NCBI GenBank assembly: GCA_964446735.1
Contig: CAYUQB010000001.1
Span: forward strand, 380,460-444,459
Length of the DNA stretch: 64,000 nt
From: an uncultured Candidatus Saccharibacteria bacterium
GTDB taxonomy: Bacteria > Patescibacteriota > Minisyncoccia > Phycocordibacterales > Phycocordibacteraceae
Direction: 5' to 3'
Part shown: one piece after another, positions 1 through 37,362 of the stretch
Layout of the letters: each line of letters begins with the position of its first letter
Numbering within the stretch: position 1 is the stretch's first letter
Notes under the pieces: model-generated
The model's input: the letters and a program-made list of their open reading frames with translations, nothing else
The model's database searches: none
What the model was told of the DNA's origin: nothing
Made by a program: the position numbers and the translations under genes

Positions 1-721
1 TGGCAAGCGATTCGGTCGGCTTCTCGATGACAAGATACTTCTTGCTCATCAAATCGACCGGGTTGAGATTGCGCACTTCCTCCGTGATGAGACTACCAAT
101 GTTGCTGAAGGACTTCTCCGTGTTGGCGTCCTTCGCAGCAAGCGCGATCACTGCTGCGTTCTTACGCTTGGATGCGAGCATTTCCTGCCCCGCAGCCTTT
201 GCGATTGCGTGAAGCGCGCCGATCGCTTCTTTGGTCTTGGGTGCGGTAAAGGAAAACGAGTCGACAAAGATAATCTCACCGTCCTTGAGTTTGCGAGAGA
301 GTACGCTTGCGAGCGCTGCCGCGCGCATTTTGCGGTTGATTTTCACGGCATAGACTTTCTCAGCGCGTGGACCGTGCGTGGTACCACCACCTACCCAGAT
401 AGGAGAACGGTTCGAACCGTGACGAGCGCGGCCAGTACCCTTCTGCTTCCACGGCTTCTTACCGCCGCCGGCTACTTCACCACGGAACTTCGTGTGTGCG
501 ATGGTCGGTCGTGCATTCGCCTGCATGCCCGTAACGACCTGGTGCACGAGATCAGCATTCCAGGGAGCGGTGAAGAGTTCTGCCGGGAGCGAGACGGTAC
601 CCGTGGTACCACCCTTCATATCGAACACGGTTGCTTCAGTTGAAGAGACGGATTCAGTCTTCTTCACCGCTTTTTTGGCGGGTGCCTTCTTTGCTGCTGG
701 TTTGGTTGCTGCGGTTGCCAT
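1..721 (-). CDS. rplD: 50S ribosomal protein L4, 5' part only (gene runs off window start)
   Basis: Minus-strand ORF reading MATAATKPAAKKAPAKK...GSNRSPIWVGGGTTHGPRAEKV; start codon at 719-721 directly downstream of rplC in S10-operon order; not in the ORF track because it is open at the window edge. Confidence 0.75.
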   Translation of the reverse strand, partial: MATAATKPAAKKAPAKKAVKKTESVSSTEATVFDMKGGTTGTVSLPAELFTAPWNADLVHQVVTGMQANARPTIAHTKFRGEVAGGGKKPWKQKGTGRARHGSNRSPIWVGGGTTHGPRAEKVYAVKINRKMRAAALASVLSRKLKDGEIIFVDSFSFTAPKTKEAIGALHAIAKAAGQEMLASKRKNAAVIALAAKDANTEKSFSNIGSLITEEVRNLNPVDLMSKKYLVIEKPTESLA

Positions 722-732
722 ACGTACGTAAA

Positions 733-1338
733 TTATTTGGCGACTATCTCGACCAGGGAACCCGGTGCACCAGGAACCGCTCCCGAAACGATGATCTGGT
801 TATTTGCGGCATCAACACGAAGCACCTTGAGGTTCTTCACGGTGACACGATCGCTGCCCATGCGGCCGGCCATGCGAATGCCCTTTGCAACCTTACCGCC
901 TGCACGACCTGGACCGCCACCGATGGAGCCTGCTTCGCGCTCGGAATGTTTCTGACCGTGAGTGCGGCGCCCGCCATGGAACCCATGACGCTTCACGACG
1001 CCAGCGAAGCCTCGACCCTTGCTGGTTCCGGCGACTTCGATGACGTCACCTTGTGCGAAGGTGTCAGCGGCGATGGCAGTACCAACGGTAAAGTCAGCAG
1101 GGTTCTCAACTTTGAACTCCTTAAGGACCTTGAATGCCTTAGCGTGCTGGGGCTTGGCCAGACGCTCGATCTTCTGAGTGTCGTACCCGACCTGCACGGC
1201 GGTGTATCCGTCGACATCCGTCGTCTTAACCTGGGTAACGACGTTAGGACCCACCAGAAGGATGGTTCCAGCATTCACACGCCCATCTTCTTCGAAGACT
1301 TGGGTCATGCGGCCTTTGCGGGCAAGGATGAATTTCAT
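733..1338 (-). CDS. rplC: 50S ribosomal protein L3
   Basis: 201 aa, MKFILARKGRMTQVF...GTSKGRGFAGVVKRHGFHGG, the typical L3 signature; position in S10 operon. Confidence 0.9.
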   Translation of the reverse strand: MKFILARKGRMTQVFEEDGRVNAGTILLVGPNVVTQVKTTDVDGYTAVQVGYDTQKIERLAKPQHAKAFKVLKEFKVENPADFTVGTAIAADTFAQGDVIEVAGTSKGRGFAGVVKRHGFHGGRRTHGQKHSEREAGSIGGGPGRAGGKVAKGIRMAGRMGSDRVTVKNLKVLRVDAANNQIIVSGAVPGAPGSLVEIVAK

Positions 1339-1507
1339 AAAAATTTGAATCCGCGCTCAATGGCGCGGTTTTGGAAAACCTGCGGCCATTGGTCCGAGCG
1401 AAACCTCGTACGTAGCGTGTAGGCGCACAGTACACGTCCGCGCCAGAAATTGCAAATCAGGGAAACGAAAGAGCCGGGTGTCCCCACCCGGCTCCAACTC
1501 GCCTGCC

Positions 1508-1774
1508 TTACGCGGCCTTCTTCAGGGGCCGCTCTTCGCTTTTCCTCTTCGCCCGCTCGATGCGAGCGACCACGAACCGTCGCTCTGCGTAGAGTCGCTC
1601 CGTGTGCTGTCGGCTCGCCTCGATGTAGACCACCTCCTGCGCCCGAAGTTGCGGGAGCGAGCTCATTTCCGCCCGAAACATCTTTTCCGATTCGAGCAGC
1701 TTGTCGATCTTTTCGAGTTCGGACTCAAGCTCCGCGAGCGTTGCGGGCCGCAAGAATTTGAACAGGTGCAACAT
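1508..1774 (-). CDS. hypothetical 88-aa coiled-coil protein inserted between rpsJ and rplC
   Basis: ORF on the same strand as the flanking r-protein genes; charged and helical; no recognisable family. Confidence 0.3.
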   Translation of the reverse strand: MLHLFKFLRPATLAELESELEKIDKLLESEKMFRAEMSSLPQLRAQEVVYIEASRQHTERLYAERRFVVARIERAKRKSEERPLKKAA

Positions 1775-2128
1775 CTATCCCCCGTTGGCACATGAGAAAA
1801 GAAAATTGCCGCGAATGCGGCAGGTGAGTAAAAGACCTCACCGATTTCGATTTAAGCATGAAAAGCATATTCATTCAAGCTGCGTGCTATCGTATATATG
1901 CCACGCATGAGGTGGCGCAGGAGTTCCTACGATGAGGTACGCCGTCATATTTTCCCCAGGAGGGGATGGGTGCGACCCCGCGGCGCAACAGTCAACCTAA
2001 GGAGGTGATCCTCATCTCGCTCCGCACCTGCGCGGAGTGTCGTCGGTCCGGGGTGGCTTGCTGCCCCGGACTTCTTATTTCAATAGAACGCATATCGGCC
2101 ACGGTCCTGACTTCACATAAAAACAAAA

Positions 2129-2150
2129 CGCCCCGGTTACCCGGGGACGT
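2129..2150 (-). terminator. hairpin terminator downstream of guaA-remnant mini-ORF
   Basis: cgccccgg-ttac-ccggggacg stem-loop, followed on the minus strand by TTTTGTTTTT. Confidence 0.5.
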
Positions 2151-2169
2151 TCGCGTCGAAGTTCAAGAT

Positions 2170-2343
2170 CTATTCGGCGAGGGCTTCGCGAACCAGTCTG
2201 GCAGCGACTGCGGGGTCCACACCACCCGAAAGGCCGCAGATCACCTTCCCGTCGCCGACCTGGTCCCTGATGCGTTTGACCGCTTCGTCACGGAATTCGT
2301 CACGAAGCTGACCCTGCCGGGTCGCCTTTGATTTGCCTGTCAT
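2170..2343 (-). pseudogene. guaA: 57-aa remnant of the GMP synthase ATP-pyrophosphatase (PP-loop) domain
   Basis: [57 protein letters not shown] aligns to the start of the GuaA ATP-PPase domain (consensus FIEEAVxxIReQVGDxKVILGLSGGVDSSVxAxLL); PP-loop SGGVDS is mutated to SGGVDP; stop comes right after; AGGAGG RBS 7 nt upstream; below the ORF-track size cutoff. Confidence 0.6.
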
Positions 2344-2369
2344 TGGGCACCTCCTGGCTATAGCATAGC

Positions 2370-2397
2370 AAAACGCCCCGATCTCTCGGGGCGTTTT
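2370..2397 (-). terminator. intrinsic terminator immediately after rpsJ
   Basis: 12-bp perfect stem aaaacgccccga/tcggggcgtttt with 4-nt loop, followed by a U-run on the minus strand. Confidence 0.65.
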
Positions 2398-2411
2398 GCT
2401 AGTTGGTCCGT

Positions 2412-2774
2412 TTAGACCATCTTCACATCAATCGTCACACCGGACGGAAGATTGAGGTTCGTGAGAGCCTCAATCACTTTCGGATTCGGTGAGAGGATAT
2501 CGATGAGGCGCTTGTGGATGCGCATCTCGAACTGCTCGCGTGCGTCCTTATGAACGAAGGTCGAGCGGTTCACAGTCCATCGCTTGATCTCGGTAGGAAG
2601 CGGAACAGGACCAACGATTTTCGCGTCGAAGCGGTTCGCCGTATCCATGATCTGCTTGACCGAGAGGTCGAGGATCTTGTGCTCGTAGGCACGCACGCGG
2701 ATGCGGAGCTTTGGCTCTGTCGCGGCATCCGCGCCAGCTGCCTTCTTCGAGCTCTTCTTTGCGGTAGCGGCCAT
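2412..2774 (-). CDS. rpsJ: 30S ribosomal protein S10 with ~20-aa Lys/Ala-rich N-terminal extension
   Basis: [21 protein letters not shown]...[25 protein letters not shown]; conserved S10 core. Confidence 0.9.
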
Positions 2775-2795
2775 ACGAGTACTGGTCGTTCGCTA

Positions 2796-3995
2796 TTACG
2801 CGGTGATCTTCGTCACGACGCCGGCACCGACGGTCTTACCACCTTCGCGAATAGCGAAGCGGGTGTTGTCCTCAAGCGCGATCGGCGCAGTGAGCTTGAC
2901 CTTGAAGGTAACGGTATCGCCCGGCATGACCATTTCCTTGCCTTCCGGAAGGGTAACCTCGCCGGTGACATCGGTCGTGCGAACGTAGAACTGCGGCTTG
3001 TAGCCAGTGAAGAACGGCGTGTGACGGCCACCCTCATCCTTAGAAAGGATGTACACCTCTGCCTCAAAGTCGGTGTGCGGGGTAACGGTGCCGCTCTTTG
3101 CGAGCACCTGACCACGATGCACATCCTCCTTCTTCGTGCCGCGCAGGAGGATACCAGCGTTGTCGCCAGCCTGACCTTCCTGAAGCTGCTTGTTGAACAT
3201 TTCGATGCCAGTGACGGTCGTCTTGGCCGTCGGCTTAAGACCAACGATTTCGACTTCCTCACCAACCTTCACAATGCCGCGGTCGATGCGGCCCGTAACG
3301 ACGGTGCCACGACCTTCAATCGAGAAGATGTCCTCGATTGCCATGAGGAACGGCTTGTCGGTCTCACGGACTGGGTCCGGGAAGTAGGAGTCCATGGTGT
3401 CCACGAGCTCCTTAACCTTGAGCGCCCACTCGTCTTCAGCGCTGGTCGCCTCAAGCGCCTTAAGACCGGAGCCCTTGATGACGGGAGTGTCCTTATCAAA
3501 GCCCTGCTTGGTGAGAAGGTCACGAATTTCCTCTTCAACGAGGTCTACCATGTCCTTGTCATCCACCATGTCTACCTTGTTGAGGAAGACAATGAGCTTC
3601 GGCACACCCACCTGCTTTGCAAGAAGAATGTGCTCGCGGGTCTGCGGCATTGCGCCGTCAGTTGCGGCGACCACGAGAACTGCGCCGTCCATCTGGGCGG
3701 CACCCGTGATCATGTTCTTGATGTAGTCTGCGTGGCCCGGAGCGTCGATGTGCGCGTAGTGGCGGTTCGGCGTCTCATATTCCGAGTGGTGAAGCGCGAT
3801 GGTAATACCGCGCGCCTTCTCCTCGGGCGCGTTGTCGATGTTTTCGACCTTCTCTGCGCGAGCCTTGTAGCCAGCGCCAGAGTTGAGGTTGAGAACATTC
3901 AGAATGGAAGCCGTGAGCGTGGTCTTACCATGGTCGACGTGACCGATAGTACCTACGTTCATGTGCGGCTTGCTGCGATCGAATGCATCTGCCAT
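2796..3995 (-). CDS. tuf: elongation factor Tu
   Basis: 399 aa, [31 protein letters not shown] motifs. Confidence 0.95.
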
Positions 3996-4204
3996 AGGTT
4001 CGTAAATTACTGGTAGCTAAGTAAGCTGCCGTCCCGCCTGCCTGCGGTTGAAGGCAGGCGACCAAGGCGCTCCGGCGATTCCCCCGCGCAGCGCCTTTCA
4101 GCCGTCCTCCTCCCCTGTGGTCGGATAACATCGAAAAGAGCGCCGTACTCGCGTTAGGTGTAAAGGTACACGGCACGTTATGAAGCGTCAAGGAAATAAA
4201 AGGT

Positions 4205-4232
4205 CAGCCTCGCCGTTCTACCGGCGAGGCTG
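4205..4232 (-). terminator. hairpin terminator after GC-rich ORF 4259-4852
   Basis: 11-bp stem cagcctcgccg/cggcgaggctg. Confidence 0.5.
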
Positions 4233-4258
4233 GTGCAAAGCACGTAGGACAGGGTGAC

Positions 4259-4852
4259 TTACCCGGCGGCGAAGGCCGGCGTCTTGCCGCGGAAGCCACT
4301 TTTGGGCTTCTCCTCCCCGCGGGCGGCGGCCTTGCGGGCCTTCTTGCCGCACGGGTTCTGCTTGCGAGGCGCGTGACCTGGCTCGAACATCGTTTCGGCG
4401 AGCGGCGGCTCCTCATTGCGCAGGGCCGCCACCAGTTCCGCCTCGATGGTGACCGGGTCGACGACCGGCAGCGGATCGACGCATGGCTTGGGCTCGGCTG
4501 ACCACTGGAGTTGCCGCGGCCCGAAGAGCGCGGTCAGCTCGGCGTTCGGGAAGACCAGGCCGCTGGTGGCGACGAAGTGGCGGATCATGCCCATCGTGGC
4601 GCGGTCGCCCAGGTCGTAGAGGACCTGGTAGGCGCGGTCGAGCGGCTCGGGCTCGCTGAAGGTCCAGCCGTTGCCGACGCGGACCATGATGACGACGAAG
4701 GCGTGCTCTTTCTCAAAGAGCCGGCCGGCCTCGAGCATCTGCCACAGCGTGGCTTCGTCGTAGACGGGCTGCTTGAAGCGCGAGATCAGGTAGCCGACGC
4801 CGAATTCGGACTTCGGCTTGGTGTAGCTGCTGGCATCCGGAATCTTGGACAT
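4259..4852 (-). CDS. hypothetical protein (GC-rich cassette between tuf and fusA) with basic C-terminal tail
   Basis: 197-aa ORF, locally elevated GC, C-terminus APRKQNPCGKKARKAAARGEEKPKSGFRGK; no family recognised. Confidence 0.45.
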   Translation of the reverse strand: MSKIPDASSYTKPKSEFGVGYLISRFKQPVYDEATLWQMLEAGRLFEKEHAFVVIMVRVGNGWTFSEPEPLDRAYQVLYDLGDRATMGMIRHFVATSGLVFPNAELTALFGPRQLQWSAEPKPCVDPLPVVDPVTIEAELVAALRNEEPPLAETMFEPGHAPRKQNPCGKKARKAAARGEEKPKSGFRGKTPAFAAG

Positions 4853-4962
4853 GCTTTCCCTTTCGCTGTCCGTACTGGTTGATGAAAAGACGCCAGAGGC
4901 GCCGACTAACTGAACATTAGAGTAATAGAATTATTGAAAAAGTCAATGGGTTGGGGTCTTTC

Positions 4963-5409
4963 CTAGTGATGCCCACCGCCATGCCCACCGTGTGCCTCAG
5001 CCTTTTTTTGACCGCCGCCGCCGCCTCCTTCTCCTCGTATGGATTCAACCGCCCCCTTAAGAAGACCGCCCCCAATCGTCTTAACTCCTATGTGCCACCC
5101 CCAAAACCAGAGGAATCCAAAGAATCCTCCCACTCCTCCATGACCATGGCCGCCCTCATGATGTGCGGAGGCATGGTTGCCACTCGAGATTGGTGCACCT
5201 ACCGATATTCTGCCCGGAGCTGTAGCACTAGTCCGAGCAAGGTTCGCTTTGGTCTGTTCAATGGCTTGAGCGTTCTCTCCGGTTGCGGGGGGCGTCTGTG
5301 CATGTGCTTCGGCAGCTTGTGCCTCGGCTTCTACTGCGGCCTCATGATCTTCTTGAGTCTCTGGCACCTTGGGAGTTCGTTCAGGTCCAGCGGGAGGGTT
5401 TTCTGACAT
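4963..5409 (-). CDS. hypothetical His/Gly-rich low-complexity protein
   Basis: 148 aa with HHEGGHGHGGVGGFFGFLWFWGWHIGV and GGGGGGQKKAEAHGGHGGGHH; an alternative ORF on the opposite strand (4951-5406) is also open, so the strand is uncertain. Confidence 0.3.
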   Translation of the reverse strand: MSENPPAGPERTPKVPETQEDHEAAVEAEAQAAEAHAQTPPATGENAQAIEQTKANLARTSATAPGRISVGAPISSGNHASAHHEGGHGHGGVGGFFGFLWFWGWHIGVKTIGGGLLKGAVESIRGEGGGGGGQKKAEAHGGHGGGHH

Positions 5410-5444
5410 GTCTCAAGCTTAGCATCTCTCCCTAAAACGCAAGA

Positions 5445-5462
5445 AACCGCCTGTGGGCGGTT
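5445..5462 (-). terminator. terminator after fusA
   Basis: aaccgcc-tgtg-ggcggtt hairpin, then a U-rich run on the minus strand. Confidence 0.5.
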
Positions 5463-5484
5463 CCGTGCTGCACGCTCTGATCCT

Positions 5485-7632
5485 TTATTTCCTCGATGCA
5501 ATGATGTCTTGCGCAACGTTTTGAGGGACTACTTCGTAGTGATCGAACTCCATGGTCATTGAACCGCGACCTTCAGTCATGGAACGGAGGCTTGTGGTGT
5601 AGCCGAACATTTCTGAGAGCGGAACCTTCGCATGCACCGCCTTGTTCATACCGCGATCTTCCATTCCTTCGATGGCGCCGCGCTTTCCGGAAAGGTTGCC
5701 TGTGATATCACCCATGAACTGCTCGGGGATAACCACTTCGACATTCATGATTGGTTCGAGTATGACCGGCTTAGCTTTGTGTGCCGCTTCCTGGAAGGCC
5801 TGACTTGCTGCAATCTTGAACGCAATTTCAGATGAGTCGACTTCGTGGAAAGAACCATCGTAGAGGTCGACCGATACATCCACCATTGGGTAGCCGGCAA
5901 GCACGCCGCGTCCCATAGCTTCGCGAATACCCTTTTCGATCGGGTTGATGTATTCCGTCGGGATGACACCACCCTTGATGTTGTTGATGAACTCAAAGTG
6001 GTCCTCACGGGTAACGTTCTTGGGAATCTTGGCATCTTCTGCAAGCGGCTCGAGGTGCTTCACCTTGATCTTCACGTGGCCGTACTGACCCTTACCACCC
6101 GTCTGCTTGATGTACTTGTTCTCGACATCGGCGGCGCCAAGAATTGTCTCGCGGTATGCCACCTGTGGCTTACCCACATTCGCTTCCACGTTGAACTCTC
6201 GCTTCATGCGATCCACGAGGATCTCCAGATGGAGCTCACCCATACCTGCCATGATGGTCTCGCCGGTCTCCTCATCCGAAGAAATCTTGAAGGTTGGGTC
6301 CTCGTCCGAAAGCTTACGAAGTGCCATACCCATCTTTTCCTGGTCGGCCTTAGTCTTCGGCTCGATGCGAAGAGAAACCACTGGCTCAGGGAACTTAATC
6401 TCCTCAAGGAGGATCGGATTCGCTTCGTCGCAGAGCGTGTGCGACGTCTTAGTGTCCTTAAGACCTACCATTGCCGCAATCTCACCCGTGAAGACGGTCT
6501 CGACTTCCTCACGCTTATCCGCCTGGAGTCGCACGATGCGACCGACACGCTCTTTGTTACCGGTGTTGGCATTGTAGACATACGAGCCGGCAGAGACGGT
6601 ACCGGAATACACACGGAAGAAGGTAAGCGCACCAACGAAGGGATCGGTCTGAAGTTTGAATGCAAGTGCCGTGAACGGCTCCTTGTCGTCTGCCGTACGC
6701 TCTACTTCTTCACCAGTCTTGGGGTTCGTTCCCTTTACCGGAGGGAGATCAAGCGGACTGGGGAGATAGTCGACAACCGCATCAAGTACGAGCTGTACGC
6801 CCTTGTTCTTCAAGGCTGAACCGGTGTAGACCGGGAAGATTTCATTTGCGATCACCGCCTTGCGGAGGGTCTTCTTCAGATCCTCGACGGAAGGTTCGTT
6901 ACCCTCGAAGTATGCATTCATCTGCGCCTCGTCATGTTCGACAATGCGCTCAATGAGCTCGGCGCGGTACTTCTGTGCCTCAGCTTTGTACTGTTCCGGT
7001 ACTTCGCCCTCGGTGACTTCTTCGCCCATATTGCCGCTGAAGGTGTAGGCCTTCATGGACAGGAGATCGATGACACCCTCAAAATCGTTCTCAGCACCCA
7101 TAGGGAGCTGCGCACGCACGGCCTTCTTCGACAGGCGGTCGAGGATCGACTTATAGGAGTCTTCGAACGATGCGCCCGTGCGATCCAATTTATTGATGAA
7201 ACAGACGCGTGGCACATTGGCTTCGTCTGCATAGCGCCAGTTGGTTTCCGACTGTGGCTCTACTCCTGCCACACCGTCAAACACCACAATCGCACCATCC
7301 AAAACGCGCATCGAGCGCTTCACTTCTGCGGTGAAGTCGATGTGTCCTGGGGTATCGATGATGTTGAAACGAAACTTCTTCGACGTATCCTTCTTATCCG
7401 GTTCGCTGGTTTTGCTCCAGAAGCAGGTGATGGCAGCAGCGGTGATGGTGATACCGCGCTCACGCTCCTGCTCCATCCAGTCGGTGGTCGTCTGGCCCTC
7501 ATGCACCTCGCCGATTTTATGCTGGGAGCCCGTGTAGAAGAGCACACGCTCGGACGTGGTCGTTTTACCTGCGTCGACGTGGGCGACGATGCCGAAGTTG
7601 CGCACTTTTTCCAGGGGATAATCGCGATTCAT
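5485..7632 (-). CDS. fusA: elongation factor G
   Basis: 715 aa, [28 protein letters not shown]. Confidence 0.95.
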
Positions 7633-9577: not shown

Positions 9578-9695
9578 TGGTCAAATGAAAACCCGCCGTG
9601 CGGGATGGGCTCACTATATAGAAAGGCCTATATAAATGCAAACAGGGGTACCTTGCCGACTTCTCCATACCGGTCGATAATCCGGCCAGTGGGCG

Positions 9696-35568: not shown

Positions 35569-35639
35569 TGCGGGATAGGAGAATCGAACTCCTGCTCTCA
35601 GTTTGGAAAACTGATGTTCTACCATTAAACTAATCCCGC
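35569..35639 (-). tRNA. tRNA-Gly (anticodon TCC)
   Basis: GCGGGATTAGTTTAATGGTAGAACATCAGTTTTCCAAACTGAGAGCAGGAGTTCGATTCTCCTATCCCGCA; 7-bp acceptor, anticodon stem TCAGT/ACTGA, loop TTTCCAA; T-arm identical to the tRNA-Gly(GCC) at 37179; CCA not encoded. Confidence 0.6.
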
Positions 35640-35686
35640 GTATCGCGAGGATAGCATAAGAGTCGTATTTACCGTAGCATTCCCCT

Positions 35687-36856
35687 ATGCGCGAGCACTA
35701 TGAGCATTTAGCGGCGGCGGTAGGATTACTTATTCTCGCAGTTCTTGTCTCCTGGTTTCGTACGGAGCCTCTCTTTTTAGACACATCCCCCGCAGGCTCG
35801 ACCGCAGAGCTTACTCCCCTCCCACCAGAGCGTTCCGAGTGGTTTGCGACGAGCACTGGACCTAGTATCAAATTTGCGACCTCAACCTTTGAGGTGCTCT
35901 TCCCTACTCGTCCAGCAACGACCACAAAGCCAACCCCCACAACACCTCCGGTTTCTCCGTCGAAACCAATGCCTAAGCCGGTTGCGACCTCAACACCCAC
36001 CGCTCCTCAAACGGATACTTTAGAACCTGCAGAACTTTCTCGTCTCAGGAACTCCATAGTCAATATTCTCTGTATTTCGCACGTTAAACCGCTACGTTCC
36101 ACTTCCGGTTCCGGTGTCATAGTAGATTCTCGTGGCATCGTTCTTACCGTTGCGCACGTTGCGCAGTCTTTACTACTTGAGCATGAACTGGGAGCGGAGA
36201 AAATATCCTGTACGATCCGCACAGGCAGCCCTGCTGTAAACGCATACACCGCCCGTCCTATATATGTCTCTGAAGACTGGATAAAGGACAATCCAACCAC
36301 ACTCATAAGCTCTCAGCCAACTGGCACGGGCGAACACGACTATGCCTTCTTGGCGATCACGGGCAGCGCCGGGAAAACTATCCCCAGTTCGTTCCCGGCA
36401 GTTGCTCTCGCAACGACTGACGCACGAGGGGGTGATCGAGTCTATATTGGCTCGTACGGTGCCCAGGACCTCACGAGTACACAAGTACGTACAAGCCTTC
36501 GCCCAACCCTTGTTGAGAGTTCGGTAAAGACACGCTACACGTTCAGGAATAACACTCCGGATGTGCTCGCAATCTCTGGTTCCGCTGCATCTCAAAGTGG
36601 CTCATCAGGAGGAGCTGTCGTTAATGCGGATGGTCAACTTATAGGACTGATCACCACGAGCGAGGTGACCGGTGACACAGCCTCCCGAGAAATGCGTGTA
36701 ATCACGCCCAGTTATATACAGCGAAGTTTTAAGGAGGATGCTGGAAAAACCCTTGAAGAATATTTAGGTCCAAATATCAGCACTCTTGTGAACTCCTACG
36801 CTGCTACGGTTGCGAGACTTGGAGATTTTCTAGCCTCGAAGATAGGCCTCAAATAA
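35687..36856 (+). CDS. membrane-anchored trypsin-like (S1) serine protease with Pro/Thr-rich linker
   Basis: TSGSGVIVDSRGIVLTVAHV (His region), GSSGGAVVNADGQLIGL (GDSGG-like Ser); N-terminal TM. Confidence 0.6.
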   Translation: MREHYEHLAAAVGLLILAVLVSWFRTEPLFLDTSPAGSTAELTPLPPERSEWFATSTGPSIKFATSTFEVLFPTRPATTTKPTPTTPPVSPSKPMPKPVATSTPTAPQTDTLEPAELSRLRNSIVNILCISHVKPLRSTSGSGVIVDSRGIVLTVAHVAQSLLLEHELGAEKISCTIRTGSPAVNAYTARPIYVSEDWIKDNPTTLISSQPTGTGEHDYAFLAITGSAGKTIPSSFPAVALATTDARGGDRVYIGSYGAQDLTSTQVRTSLRPTLVESSVKTRYTFRNNTPDVLAISGSAASQSGSSGGAVVNADGQLIGLITTSEVTGDTASREMRVITPSYIQRSFKEDAGKTLEEYLGPNISTLVNSYAATVARLGDFLASKIGLK

Positions 36857-36867
36857 ATCAGAACTAG

Positions 36868-36938
36868 TCGGGCCGCGGAGAATCGAACTCCGTCATCATC
36901 CTCCCAAAGGATGCGTACTACCGGTATACGACGGCCCG
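36868..36938 (-). tRNA. tRNA-Pro (anticodon TGG)
   Basis: CGGGCCGTCGTATACCGGTAGTACGCATCCTTTGGGAGGATGATGACGGAGTTCGATTCTCCGCGGCCCGA; anticodon loop TTTGGGA. Confidence 0.7.
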
Positions 36939-37178
36939 TTGTGCTCGAATCCTAGCAGGTTTATACAATTTGGGGCAGTTGGGTATTTTCGAACTTAAAG
37001 GACCTCATGCACTTGATTTTAAATTATCCTTTATTTACTCGATTTTTTAACGACAACCCTTTAATCAAGCCGTTAAGGATATGTCCTTTATCCCCACTGT
37101 TAACACCTTTATCCACCTTTATTCAAGATGTCTCTGTAACCAAATCGCCCCAAATATTGGGGCGATTTGGTATCCAGG

Positions 37179-37249
37179 TGCGGCTAAGGAGAATCGAACT
37201 CCTGTCTCGTCCTTGGCAAGGACGCGTTCTACCACTAAACCATAGCCGC
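37179..37249 (-). tRNA. tRNA-Gly (anticodon GCC)
   Basis: GCGGCTATGGTTTAGTGGTAGAACGCGTCCTTGCCAAGGACGAGACAGGAGTTCGATTCTCCTTAGCCGCA; anticodon loop TTGCCAA. Confidence 0.75.
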
Positions 37250-37290
37250 TTCGGCAGGCATAATAGCACAGCCCTCCCCCGCCCCACTAG

Positions 37291-37362
37291 TGCTCTCGCC
37301 AGGACTCGAACCTGGAACAGCGGTTCCGAAGACCGATGTGATATCCATTTCACCACGAGAGC
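37291..37362 (-). tRNA. tRNA-Arg (anticodon TCG), anticodon stem has one 27-43 mismatch
   Basis: GCTCTCGTGGTGAAATGGATATCACATCGGTCTTCGGAACCGCTGTTCCAGGTTCGAGTCCTGGCGAGAGCA; anticodon loop CTTCGGA. Confidence 0.55.

Follow-up and report, generated by a model that had tools for sequence, protein, structure and literature searches.

The genes for the ribosomal proteins S10 (rpsJ) and L3 (rplC) form one of the most conserved gene adjacencies in bacteria. In the stretch of DNA analysed here, 64,000 nucleotides (nt) of contig CAYUQB010000001.1 from a Parcubacteria/Kaiserbacteria-like bacterium with a tiny genome and called the window below, they are separated by 1073 bp (positions 1339-2411), all genes concerned lying on the minus strand. 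The initial annotation held that the S10/L3 linkage had been broken by extra DNA, and listed within the interval two terminators, a guaA fragment, a structured GC-rich segment and a short coiled-coil open reading frame (ORF). When the coordinates were re-derived, the interval and all of these elements were found in place. Read on the minus strand, their order is the rpsJ terminator, a 57-aa ORF (orf57), its terminator, a hairpin-rich stretch, an 88-aa ORF (orf88), its terminator, and about 130 nt up to the AUG of rplC. How, then, are L3 and the genes behind it expressed, and is any of the interposed DNA of use to them? Our results indicate that the interval is a variable spacer between two transcription units, tuf-rpsJ and rplC-rplD-rplW-rplB, and that its functional part appears to be the last ~117 nt, composed of a predicted promoter and a conserved 82-nt leader of rplC.

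A search with S10 retrieved 80 loci from species-representative genomes, all of them Patescibacteria of the Parcubacteria/Paceibacteria group and the nearest labelled Kaiserbacteria or Paceibacterota, and a search with L3 added 80 further loci from metagenomes, giving 160 related loci in all. The S10 protein of the window is 84-99% identical to S10 of metagenome-assembled genomes of Kaiserbacteria/Paceibacteria. Both genes could be placed in 132 loci, on which the counts of the rpsJ-rplC distance rest. In the 80 genome loci this distance varies between 18 and 4789 bp, and across all 132 it goes down to 4 bp. The classical arrangement, with at most 30 bp between the genes, was found in 21 loci; 27 had 31-150 bp, 31 had 151-500 bp, 36 had 501-1500 bp, and 17 exceeded 1500 bp (up to 4789). 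More than 150 bp was present in 84 of the 132 loci, and in the relatives nearest to the window the distance was always at least 159 bp. Separate tuf-rpsJ and rplC units are typical of the Kaiserbacteria-like branch of Paceibacteria. The notion of a one-off insertion, with which the split had been explained, has to be abandoned; the split is instead clade-wide, with a spacer from 159 to ~4800 bp and content that is different in every genome.

The spacer ORFs of different genomes do not cluster together, and those that can be recognised in relatives belong to unrelated families: short-chain dehydrogenase (SDR), sugar transferase, DUF3141, reverse transcriptase, Hint and beta-helix surface protein. 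Among spacer ORFs of at least 100 aa, 41 are co-directional with the ribosomal genes and 12 are not. The cargo of the window (orf57, the hairpin-rich stretch and orf88) has no homologue in any of the 160 related loci, and neither the S10 scan of GTDB genomes nor the L3 scan of metagenomes revealed a genome with the same cargo. The initial annotation had considered that relatives might share the wide spacing together with a coding gene conserved across it; the wide spacing, and with it the split, is indeed common among them, and a conserved gene is absent, the cargo being unrelated. Judging from these comparisons, the split appears old and clade-wide and the spacer content young and genome-specific, and the spacer is an instance of a variable hotspot between core genes. 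The spacers of L047 (ORF at 2666-3838 of the gap), L072, L034 and L053 carry a reverse transcriptase (RVT_1), a Hint-domain protein, a DUF3141 protein and a 783-aa beta-helix/F5_F8 surface protein. The presence of such large functional genes in relatives means that the junction accepts sizeable functional genes too.

On the upstream side of the spacer, rpsJ starts only 21 nt after the tuf stop codon, and the strong terminator that had been noted directly after it is well founded. The hairpin has a free energy (dG) of -30.2 kcal/mol and a folding z-score of -7.3, and it combines the stable stem with the U-run expected of a Rho-independent terminator. This U-run, UUUUG, sits inside the stem base, paired with an A-run (the bidirectional type), which is why a simple terminator scanner did not list it. 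A terminator-like hairpin occurs within 90 nt after rpsJ in 32 of the 41 leader-bearing relatives, and in L083, the closest relative, the element is 97% identical over 33 nt. On the downstream side, comparison of relatives revealed what appears to be a sigma70-type extended -10 promoter of the rplC operon, from whose position a transcription start site near 1420 is predicted. In most Kaiserbacteria-like relatives the module TTGCAT-N17-TG-TAGAGT/TATAGT is found equally far from rplC, and where the whole intergenic region measures 159-188 nt it reads rpsJ-terminator-promoter-leader-rplC, the leader occupying ~75-120 nt before the ATG. A sigma70 consensus scanner called no rplC promoter, because the -10 box of this lineage (TAGAGT/TACTGT) scores under its cut-off. 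The expectation that the rplC unit requires a promoter of its own is thus supported by a conserved candidate. In the Logan contig L081, the genes for L4, L23 and L2 come after rplC.

Weak blastn matches to related loci first pointed at the last ~80 nt before rplC. A covariance model, R1, built from 18 leaders, has one match in the window (1334-1420, minus strand; 71 bits, E 4.6e-14) and 50 matches at E<=1 across 1.2 Mb of related loci, one per locus, which places the leader in ~48 relatives. All matches with E<=0.1 are on the rplC strand and end 0-55 nt before the rplC start, and the smallest rpsJ-rplC gap among leader-bearing loci is 159 nt. Of 145 loci, 49 have the 9-nt core (GACCAATGG and its variants) in the 200 nt upstream of rplC, with 0.011 expected per locus. 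No Rfam 15 model matches the region at E<=10. The element occupies the position of a ribosomal protein (r-protein) leader, with a promoter and its predicted start immediately upstream and an r-protein operon directly downstream. A new leader RNA for the L3-L4 unit, as the initial annotation had supposed, therefore exists and is conserved; its location, 1339-1420, is one which that annotation had not singled out, and it is not the GC-rich segment at ~1960-2110. A survey of 32 start regions in the window found a Shine-Dalgarno (SD) sequence only at orf57 and at one other gene; among the 28 native genes checked there is just this one. A -10-like box precedes the ATG of many native genes by 8-12 nt, which suggests that the mRNAs are predominantly leaderless or short-leader. 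With SD sequences so rare and so many genes leaderless-looking, a structured leader of 82 nt is exceptional in this genome.

Helix statistics were obtained from a 35-sequence leader alignment. Five of the six pairs of hairpin P1 show compensatory double changes, and 95.6% of its cells are paired. Covariation over the whole structure is 0.408 against 0.160 in column shuffles, none of 500 reaching the observed value, and falls to 0.03-0.11 when the partners are slid by 1-3 columns. The conserved structure expected of an r-protein leader is thus provided by covariation of P1, with weaker support for the other helices. Conserved single strands flank P1 (CGCUAYG ... GGACCAAUGGC), and the J strand GGACCAAUGGC includes CAAUGGC, which can pair with GCCAUUG across the variable P2 hairpin to give a putative antiterminator helix in the form of a three-way junction. 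Pairing in this helix reaches 92%, and L012 (CUAUGG/CUGUAG) and L090 (CACUGG/CUAGUG) show true compensations. A third pairing, of the 5' GCUA with UGGC of J, is 98% compatible, shows no double changes, and could act as an anti-antiterminator.

A terminator-like hairpin with a T-rich tail, ending ~10 nt before the AUG, is present in 33 of the 35 leaders. Every one of the 24 type-A leaders forms it, and at its two ends, outer and inner, C-G<->U-A and U-A<->C-G exchanges are seen; in the window its dG is -11.6. The 3' strand of the antiterminator overlaps the 5' arm and the loop of this hairpin; in silico, the two helices are mutually exclusive and both folds are energetically accessible. In type-A leaders the antiterminator fold is the minimum free energy form, and the terminator fold lies 0.5-10 kcal/mol above it. 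Duplex energies of cognate and non-cognate J/loop pairs were uninformative, because J is nearly invariant. The more distant subgroups all retain the P1-J core and diverge downstream of it. Leaders of type B have a long terminator-like hairpin, and the CCUCCAGC variant has a re-matched pairing partner. In a Nomurabacteria-like type J lies 110-155 nt from the AUG, and in an Adlerbacteria-like type GGGGACCAAUAGACAAC stands directly before it.

The explanation we favour, and consider likely, is that of a two-unit spacer with genome-specific cargo, in which rplC has its own promoter and a leader that gives autogenous feedback. Transcription of tuf-rpsJ would end at the very strong terminator that directly follows rpsJ. 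The central part of the spacer (a dead piece of a foreign-style guaA, ~320 nt of orphan DNA and orf88) would be genome-specific cargo, dispensable for the ribosomal genes, and the orf88 terminator may insulate the rplC promoter from it. An r-protein encoded by the operon, when in excess over rRNA, would bind at P1/J, withdraw J from the antiterminator helix and free the downstream strand. The terminator or sequestering hairpin could then form, with its U/A-rich tract abutting the rplC AUG, and would lower transcription read-through, initiation of rplC translation, or both. As the U-tract extends to the start codon, the effect could equally well be translational, and for the window and L083, in which the U-run is interrupted (AUUCAAAUUUUU), a translational component is favoured. 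The leader is most likely a candidate for a new r-protein autoregulatory leader or attenuator, with a probable role in r-protein output. Like the transcription start and the regulatory outcome, the ligand is something we infer, and it amounts to a guess: L4 by the precedent of E. coli and Archaeoglobi, or L3 by proximity, as the product of the first gene.

Several observations weigh against autogenous control by the leader. Variation in the antiterminator helix is mostly wobble and includes few double changes, and neither the 5' CGC/3' GCG closing helix nor the GCUA/UGGC helix ever covaries. In L083 as in the window, the interrupted U-run after the hairpin does not satisfy a simple terminator rule. 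Mimicry of rRNA by the leader, frequent but not required among r-protein leaders, was not seen in comparison with E. coli 23S rRNA, which may not represent that of the host, and local alignments were no better than shuffles; R1 has no match in the E. coli rrn operon, and an 11-nt near match between the leader (CGGUCCUAUGG) and E. coli 23S rRNA (CGGUCCUAAGG, near nt 1921) is not structure-consistent. Finally, rpsL of this lineage is also preceded by a promoter, a small hairpin and a U-rich tract leading to the AUG, so that this design may be general in leadered mRNAs of an SD-less lineage rather than an attenuator. The main rival explanation, unlikely in our estimation, is that the rplC leader is a constitutive 5' untranslated region, with hairpins that stabilise the mRNA and a U/A-rich tail on which ribosomes land independently of an SD. 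A genome without SD sequences, the design shared with rpsL leaders, and a U-run in the window that makes a poor terminator tail all agree with it. It leaves unexplained, however, the conserved single-stranded motifs CGCUAYG and GGACCAAUGGC, the complementarity between J and the hairpin loop kept across CAAUGG/CCAUUG, CUAUGG/CUGUAG and CACUGG/CUAGUG, and the persistence of the P1-J core in distant subgroups where the terminator-like hairpin is missing (e.g. GGGGACCAAUAGACAACAUG, 14 nt from the AUG). Attenuation by a leader peptide seems very improbable. In that scheme an AUG in J (CCAAUGGCC) would start the peptide MAAGFPKPRH*, whose translation would choose between terminator and antiterminator; most type-A and type-B leaders do have an in-frame AUG in J, and the upstream ORF of the window stops at a UGA in the terminator loop. 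However, neither length nor sequence of the peptide is conserved, no SD or leaderless context is present, and in the CCUCCAGC subgroup (L019, L021, L023, L026, L027, L121, L139 and L147) the AUG is absent and the RNA pairing is kept instead, for which reason we rejected the upstream ORF as a conserved feature.

The remaining alternatives concern the spacer itself, and above all its hairpin-rich stretch, ~320 nt without a credible ORF. The nested hairpins described in the initial annotation are real: the one quoted there, ccgggg-tggcttgctg-ccccgg, was located at 2048-2069 within a 12-bp stem (2045-2072, dG -22.2), and tandem hairpins at 1807-1842 are followed by a U-run on the minus strand. The folding z-scores of the region 1790-2125 are -3.9 and -4.0 for the two strands, compared with -0.22 +/- 1.18 in 47 other 336-nt windows of the genome; the region is thus more structured than chance, symmetrically on the strands and partly owing to terminator-type hairpins. 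This structure, and the position between rpsJ and rplC, spoke for its being the leader or regulatory RNA of the L3-L4 unit. That reading is effectively refuted by position and non-conservation: the segment lies at least 620 nt upstream of rplC, is cut off from it by orf88, the terminator behind orf88 and the conserved promoter, and has no counterpart in the 160 related loci, whereas the 82-nt leader is conserved. It is also improbable that the stretch encodes an independent small RNA, either a mimic of the 16S rRNA 3' end (GGAUCACCUCCUUA) pairing with AGGAGGUG motifs in the orf57 SD and orf88, or a plus-strand RNA ending at 2045-2072. Besides the folding outlier and terminator-like hairpins with U-runs on both strands, this idea can draw on GGATCACCTCCTTA at 1998-2011 (minus strand), identical to the last 14 nt of E. 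coli 16S rRNA (1 occurrence against 0.02 expected), on the 8-mer CACCTCCT/AGGAGGTG, with 9 occurrences in the window against 1.65 expected, 3 of them inside the gap, and on a 17-nt complementarity between 1622-1638 and 2000-2016. The 16S match was noticed post hoc, though, and on the plus strand the same site reads as a perfect SD that no start codon follows. No similarity to the stretch was found in the related loci, phages, plasmids or viral contigs, which makes a covariation analysis of it impossible, and it contains no lineage-type promoter. Rfam 15 gave chance matches only for the gap at E<=10 (e.g. CRISPR-DR and rimP, both on terminator hairpins), and at gathering thresholds the whole window yielded just four tRNAs elsewhere. 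The 14-mer is most simply a leftover SD of decayed SD-using foreign genes, which together with their terminators would account for the stretch much as for the nearby guaA piece; the GC-rich segment would then be orphan DNA, possibly with no function. Quite doubtful, too, is a broader proposal that the space from the rpsJ terminator to the rplC promoter is a clade-wide nursery or landing pad for new DNA beside the most highly expressed genes (with fusA/tuf as perhaps another), that orf88 is a de novo or very fast-evolving real gene, and that the hairpin-rich stretch is a functional RNA, an SD sponge or antisense regulator. The latter role is suggested by the 14-nt copy of the 16S 3' end in an organism otherwise without SD use, and the former by the gene-like codon-position GC, RBS-like (ribosome-binding-site-like) element, terminator and confident hairpin model of orf88 and its lack of a homologue among ~15 billion proteins. 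That the 1.07-kb spacing is an assembly chimera or artefact is scarcely credible. The Logan assembly of SRR12113420 is 100% identical over window positions 1-2525, the whole interval included (the two assemblies may come from the same reads), both borders carry lineage-typical elements in the expected order, namely the rpsJ terminator shared with L083 and the promoter with its leader, GC content is continuous across the interval, and we found no point that supports an artefact.

As for the cargo, the initial annotation described orf57 as a guaA fragment with its own ribosome-binding site and terminator, and all three features are present. The ORF matches positions 197-238 of 512 of NCBIfam PRK00074 (E 1.1e-11) and positions 2-41 of 310 of guaA_Cterm, a segment that corresponds to the first 41 positions of the ATP-pyrophosphatase domain; blastn of the region finds guaA genes only. 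Its PP-loop (P-loop) reads SGGVDP, not SGGVDS. There is no continuation of guaA after the 57 codons in any frame, the complete ATP-pyrophosphatase and C-terminal dimerisation domains are not present, full-length guaA is absent at this locus, and no relative carries orf57. It appears to be a dead 5' fragment of guaA and not a member of the GuaA family, with an SD that looks foreign in style for a genome with almost no SDs. A guaA homologue in P0003/L082 was discarded as an unrelated frameshifted guaA; otherwise the orf57 search returned only itself. The gap has no recombinase ORF (transposase or integrase), we found no terminal inverted repeats or target-site duplication, and searches against phages, plasmids and viral contigs gave no matches except guaA. 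The only feature of this sort is a 12-nt direct repeat common to the terminators on either side of orf57. These terminators (2124-2146 and 2369-2391) are 83% identical over 23 nt, and the exact 12-mer, CGGGGCGTTTTG, occurs in both, 245 bp apart; it may be a duplication or recombination scar of the event that left the guaA fragment, or result from convergence. The sites of 16S type in the gap (1998-2011, 1631-1638 and 2348-2355) present an anti-SD-like copy on minus-strand RNA flanked by two complementary AGGAGGUG sites.

The 88-aa coiled-coil ORF is likewise present, and its AlphaFold2 model, a two-helix hairpin (pLDDT, the predicted local distance difference test, 85.7; helices 13-38 and 45-81), fits the coiled-coil description. 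Its GC at codon positions 1, 2 and 3 (0.64/0.36/0.79) is gene-like and resembles that of tuf. A word-indexed search of 5.8 billion protein clusters and an exhaustive HMMER search of 1.84 billion representatives returned only orf88 itself, no Pfam, NCBIfam or PHROG family was assigned to it, and a fold search gave generic helical hairpins only. Thus, orf88 may be a real orphan gene. Its position, with those of the other features, is given in Table 1.

Table 1. Features of the rpsJ-rplC interval and its flanking genes, in window coordinates
Feature	Position	Strand	Details
rplC (L3)	733-1338	minus	Pfam Ribosomal_L3, E 2.8e-13; first gene of the rplC-rplD-rplW-rplB unit
Conserved structured rplC leader, 82 nt	1339-1420	minus	Covariance model, alignment
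U/A-rich tail running into AUG	1339-1350	minus	
Terminator-like hairpin	1351-1368	minus	CCGCGC-CAUUGA-GCGCGG
Putative antiterminator, 3' strand	1358-1364	minus	GCCAUUG
Variable P2 hairpin	1365-1383	minus	
J / putative antiterminator, 5' strand	1385-1391	minus	CAAUGGC
P1 hairpin	1392-1411	minus	
Leader 5' motif	start of leader 1339-1420	minus	CGCUACG
Predicted rplC-operon promoter	1427-1455	minus	-35 TTGCAA (1455-1450), 17-nt spacer ending TG, -10 TACTGT (1432-1427)
Terminator after orf88	1460-1495 (stem 1470-1495)	minus	11-bp stem and U-rich tail, dG -24.1
orf88, 88-aa orphan ORF	1508-1774	minus	Predicted two-helix hairpin
Hairpin-rich non-coding orphan stretch	1797-2117		Folding z-scores; strand unassigned
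Terminator after orf57	2118-2151	minus	Stem 2131-2146, then UUUUGUUUUU (U-run); dG -18.5
orf57 with SD AGGAGG (2350-2355)	ORF 2170-2343, element 2170-2355	minus	57-aa GMP synthase (guaA) fragment
rpsJ intrinsic terminator	2357-2401	minus	16-bp perfect stem 2366-2401, A-run/U-run base, then UAUGCUAU
rpsJ (S10)	2412-2774	minus	Pfam Ribosomal_S10, E 5.5e-34; last gene of the tuf-rpsJ unit
tuf	2796-3995	minus	Upstream neighbour of rpsJ

Elsewhere in the window, tuf has its own minus-strand promoter (TTGACG at 4191-4186, a 17-nt spacer ending TG, and TACCTT at 4168-4163) and a GC-rich, structured leader of ~160 nt (within 3996-4191, minus strand), which is a second candidate conserved leader. At least 7 relatives share it with ~75% identity across 160-200 nt, and it matches no Rfam family; the 64 kb contain no further folding outlier besides the 336-nt window that begins at 3901 (z -4.9) and the hairpin-rich stretch. 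Between fusA (5485-7632) and tuf, the junction (3996-5484) likewise includes ~1.5 kb of extra DNA, in which two orphan ORFs lie, one at 4259-4852 with a GC3 of 0.90 in a local GC of 70% (genome ~57%), the other at 4963-5409 and Gly/His-rich. Neither has a homologue in the related loci, in which this junction measures 63-3473 nt. Upstream of rpsL (9578-9641, minus strand) we found a TTGCAT-N17-TATAGT promoter resembling that of rplC, the hairpin CCCGC-acg-GCGGG, a U-rich run and the AUG, a design that also occurs upstream of rpsL in relatives (L007, L010 and L019). The sequence GACCAATGGCC, common to the rplC leader and the rpsL start region (9577), was dismissed as a coincidence, since relatives do not conserve it at their rpsL starts. 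The four tRNA genes mentioned above are clustered at 35569-37362 on the minus strand and are the only gathering-level Rfam matches in the window.

The closest functional analogue of the proposed control is the S10 leader of E. coli, a multi-hairpin leader through which L4 triggers termination and blocks translation, and which is restricted to Gammaproteobacteria (PMC3616713). Both RNAs lead an operon containing rplC and rplD, both have several hairpins with a terminator-like one near the first start codon, and the proposed logic, in which excess r-protein causes termination and/or a translation block, is the same. The E. coli leader, however, precedes rpsJ, whereas in the present case rpsJ is part of the upstream unit and it is rplC that follows the leader; nor did we find homology to the five hairpins or any Rfam 15 match at E<=10. 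In gene context the element resembles a candidate L4 leader of Archaeoglobi, located directly upstream of rplC-rplD-rplW-rplB, for which L4 was proposed by precedent; its authors rate it as uncertain, and their survey reports no motif from Parcubacteria or the candidate phyla radiation (CPR) (Eckert & Weinberg 2020, PMC7247131). That candidate is archaeal, differs in structure and shows no covariance-model match to the present leader. In r-protein attenuators of Firmicutes, of which the B. subtilis L20/infC leader is an example, an intrinsic terminator competes with another helix, and the protein, by binding a 5' helix, appears to tip the balance towards the terminator. The choice between terminator and competing helix proposed here would be similar, whereas sequence, structure, operon and lineage are different, and the U-tract runs into the start codon. 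In the library searched, we found no literature on ribosomal leaders in Parcubacteria/Patescibacteria or on a split S10 operon there.

With respect to the spacer, the appropriate comparison is with chromosomal hotspots, in which variable accessory genes lie between conserved core genes. Here, too, a fixed core pair, rpsJ and rplC, flanks content which is different in every genome, and the fusA/tuf junction behaves likewise. Unlike hotspots, the present junction has no integrase, tRNA or repeat boundaries, and the insertions are small (0.1-4.6 kb) and lie inside a normally highly conserved operon. The cargo of the window is ordinary debris and one orphan ORF, and the points of note are the clade-wide split and the conserved rplC leader. 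For annotation this calls for caution, as small ORFs and gene fragments in the rpsJ-rplC spacer are mostly lineage-specific debris.

Patescibacteria have minimal regulatory repertoires. A whole CPR branch cuts the S10-L3 junction into two units and tolerates arbitrary DNA in the cut, and in the same branch the L3-L4-L23-L2 operon appears to have evolved a promoter and a structured leader of its own. The leader is short (~80 nt) and has a clear covarying hairpin, which makes it amenable to direct testing with recombinant proteins. If it is indeed a sensor of an r-protein, it would be, to our knowledge, the first such element described for Patescibacteria.

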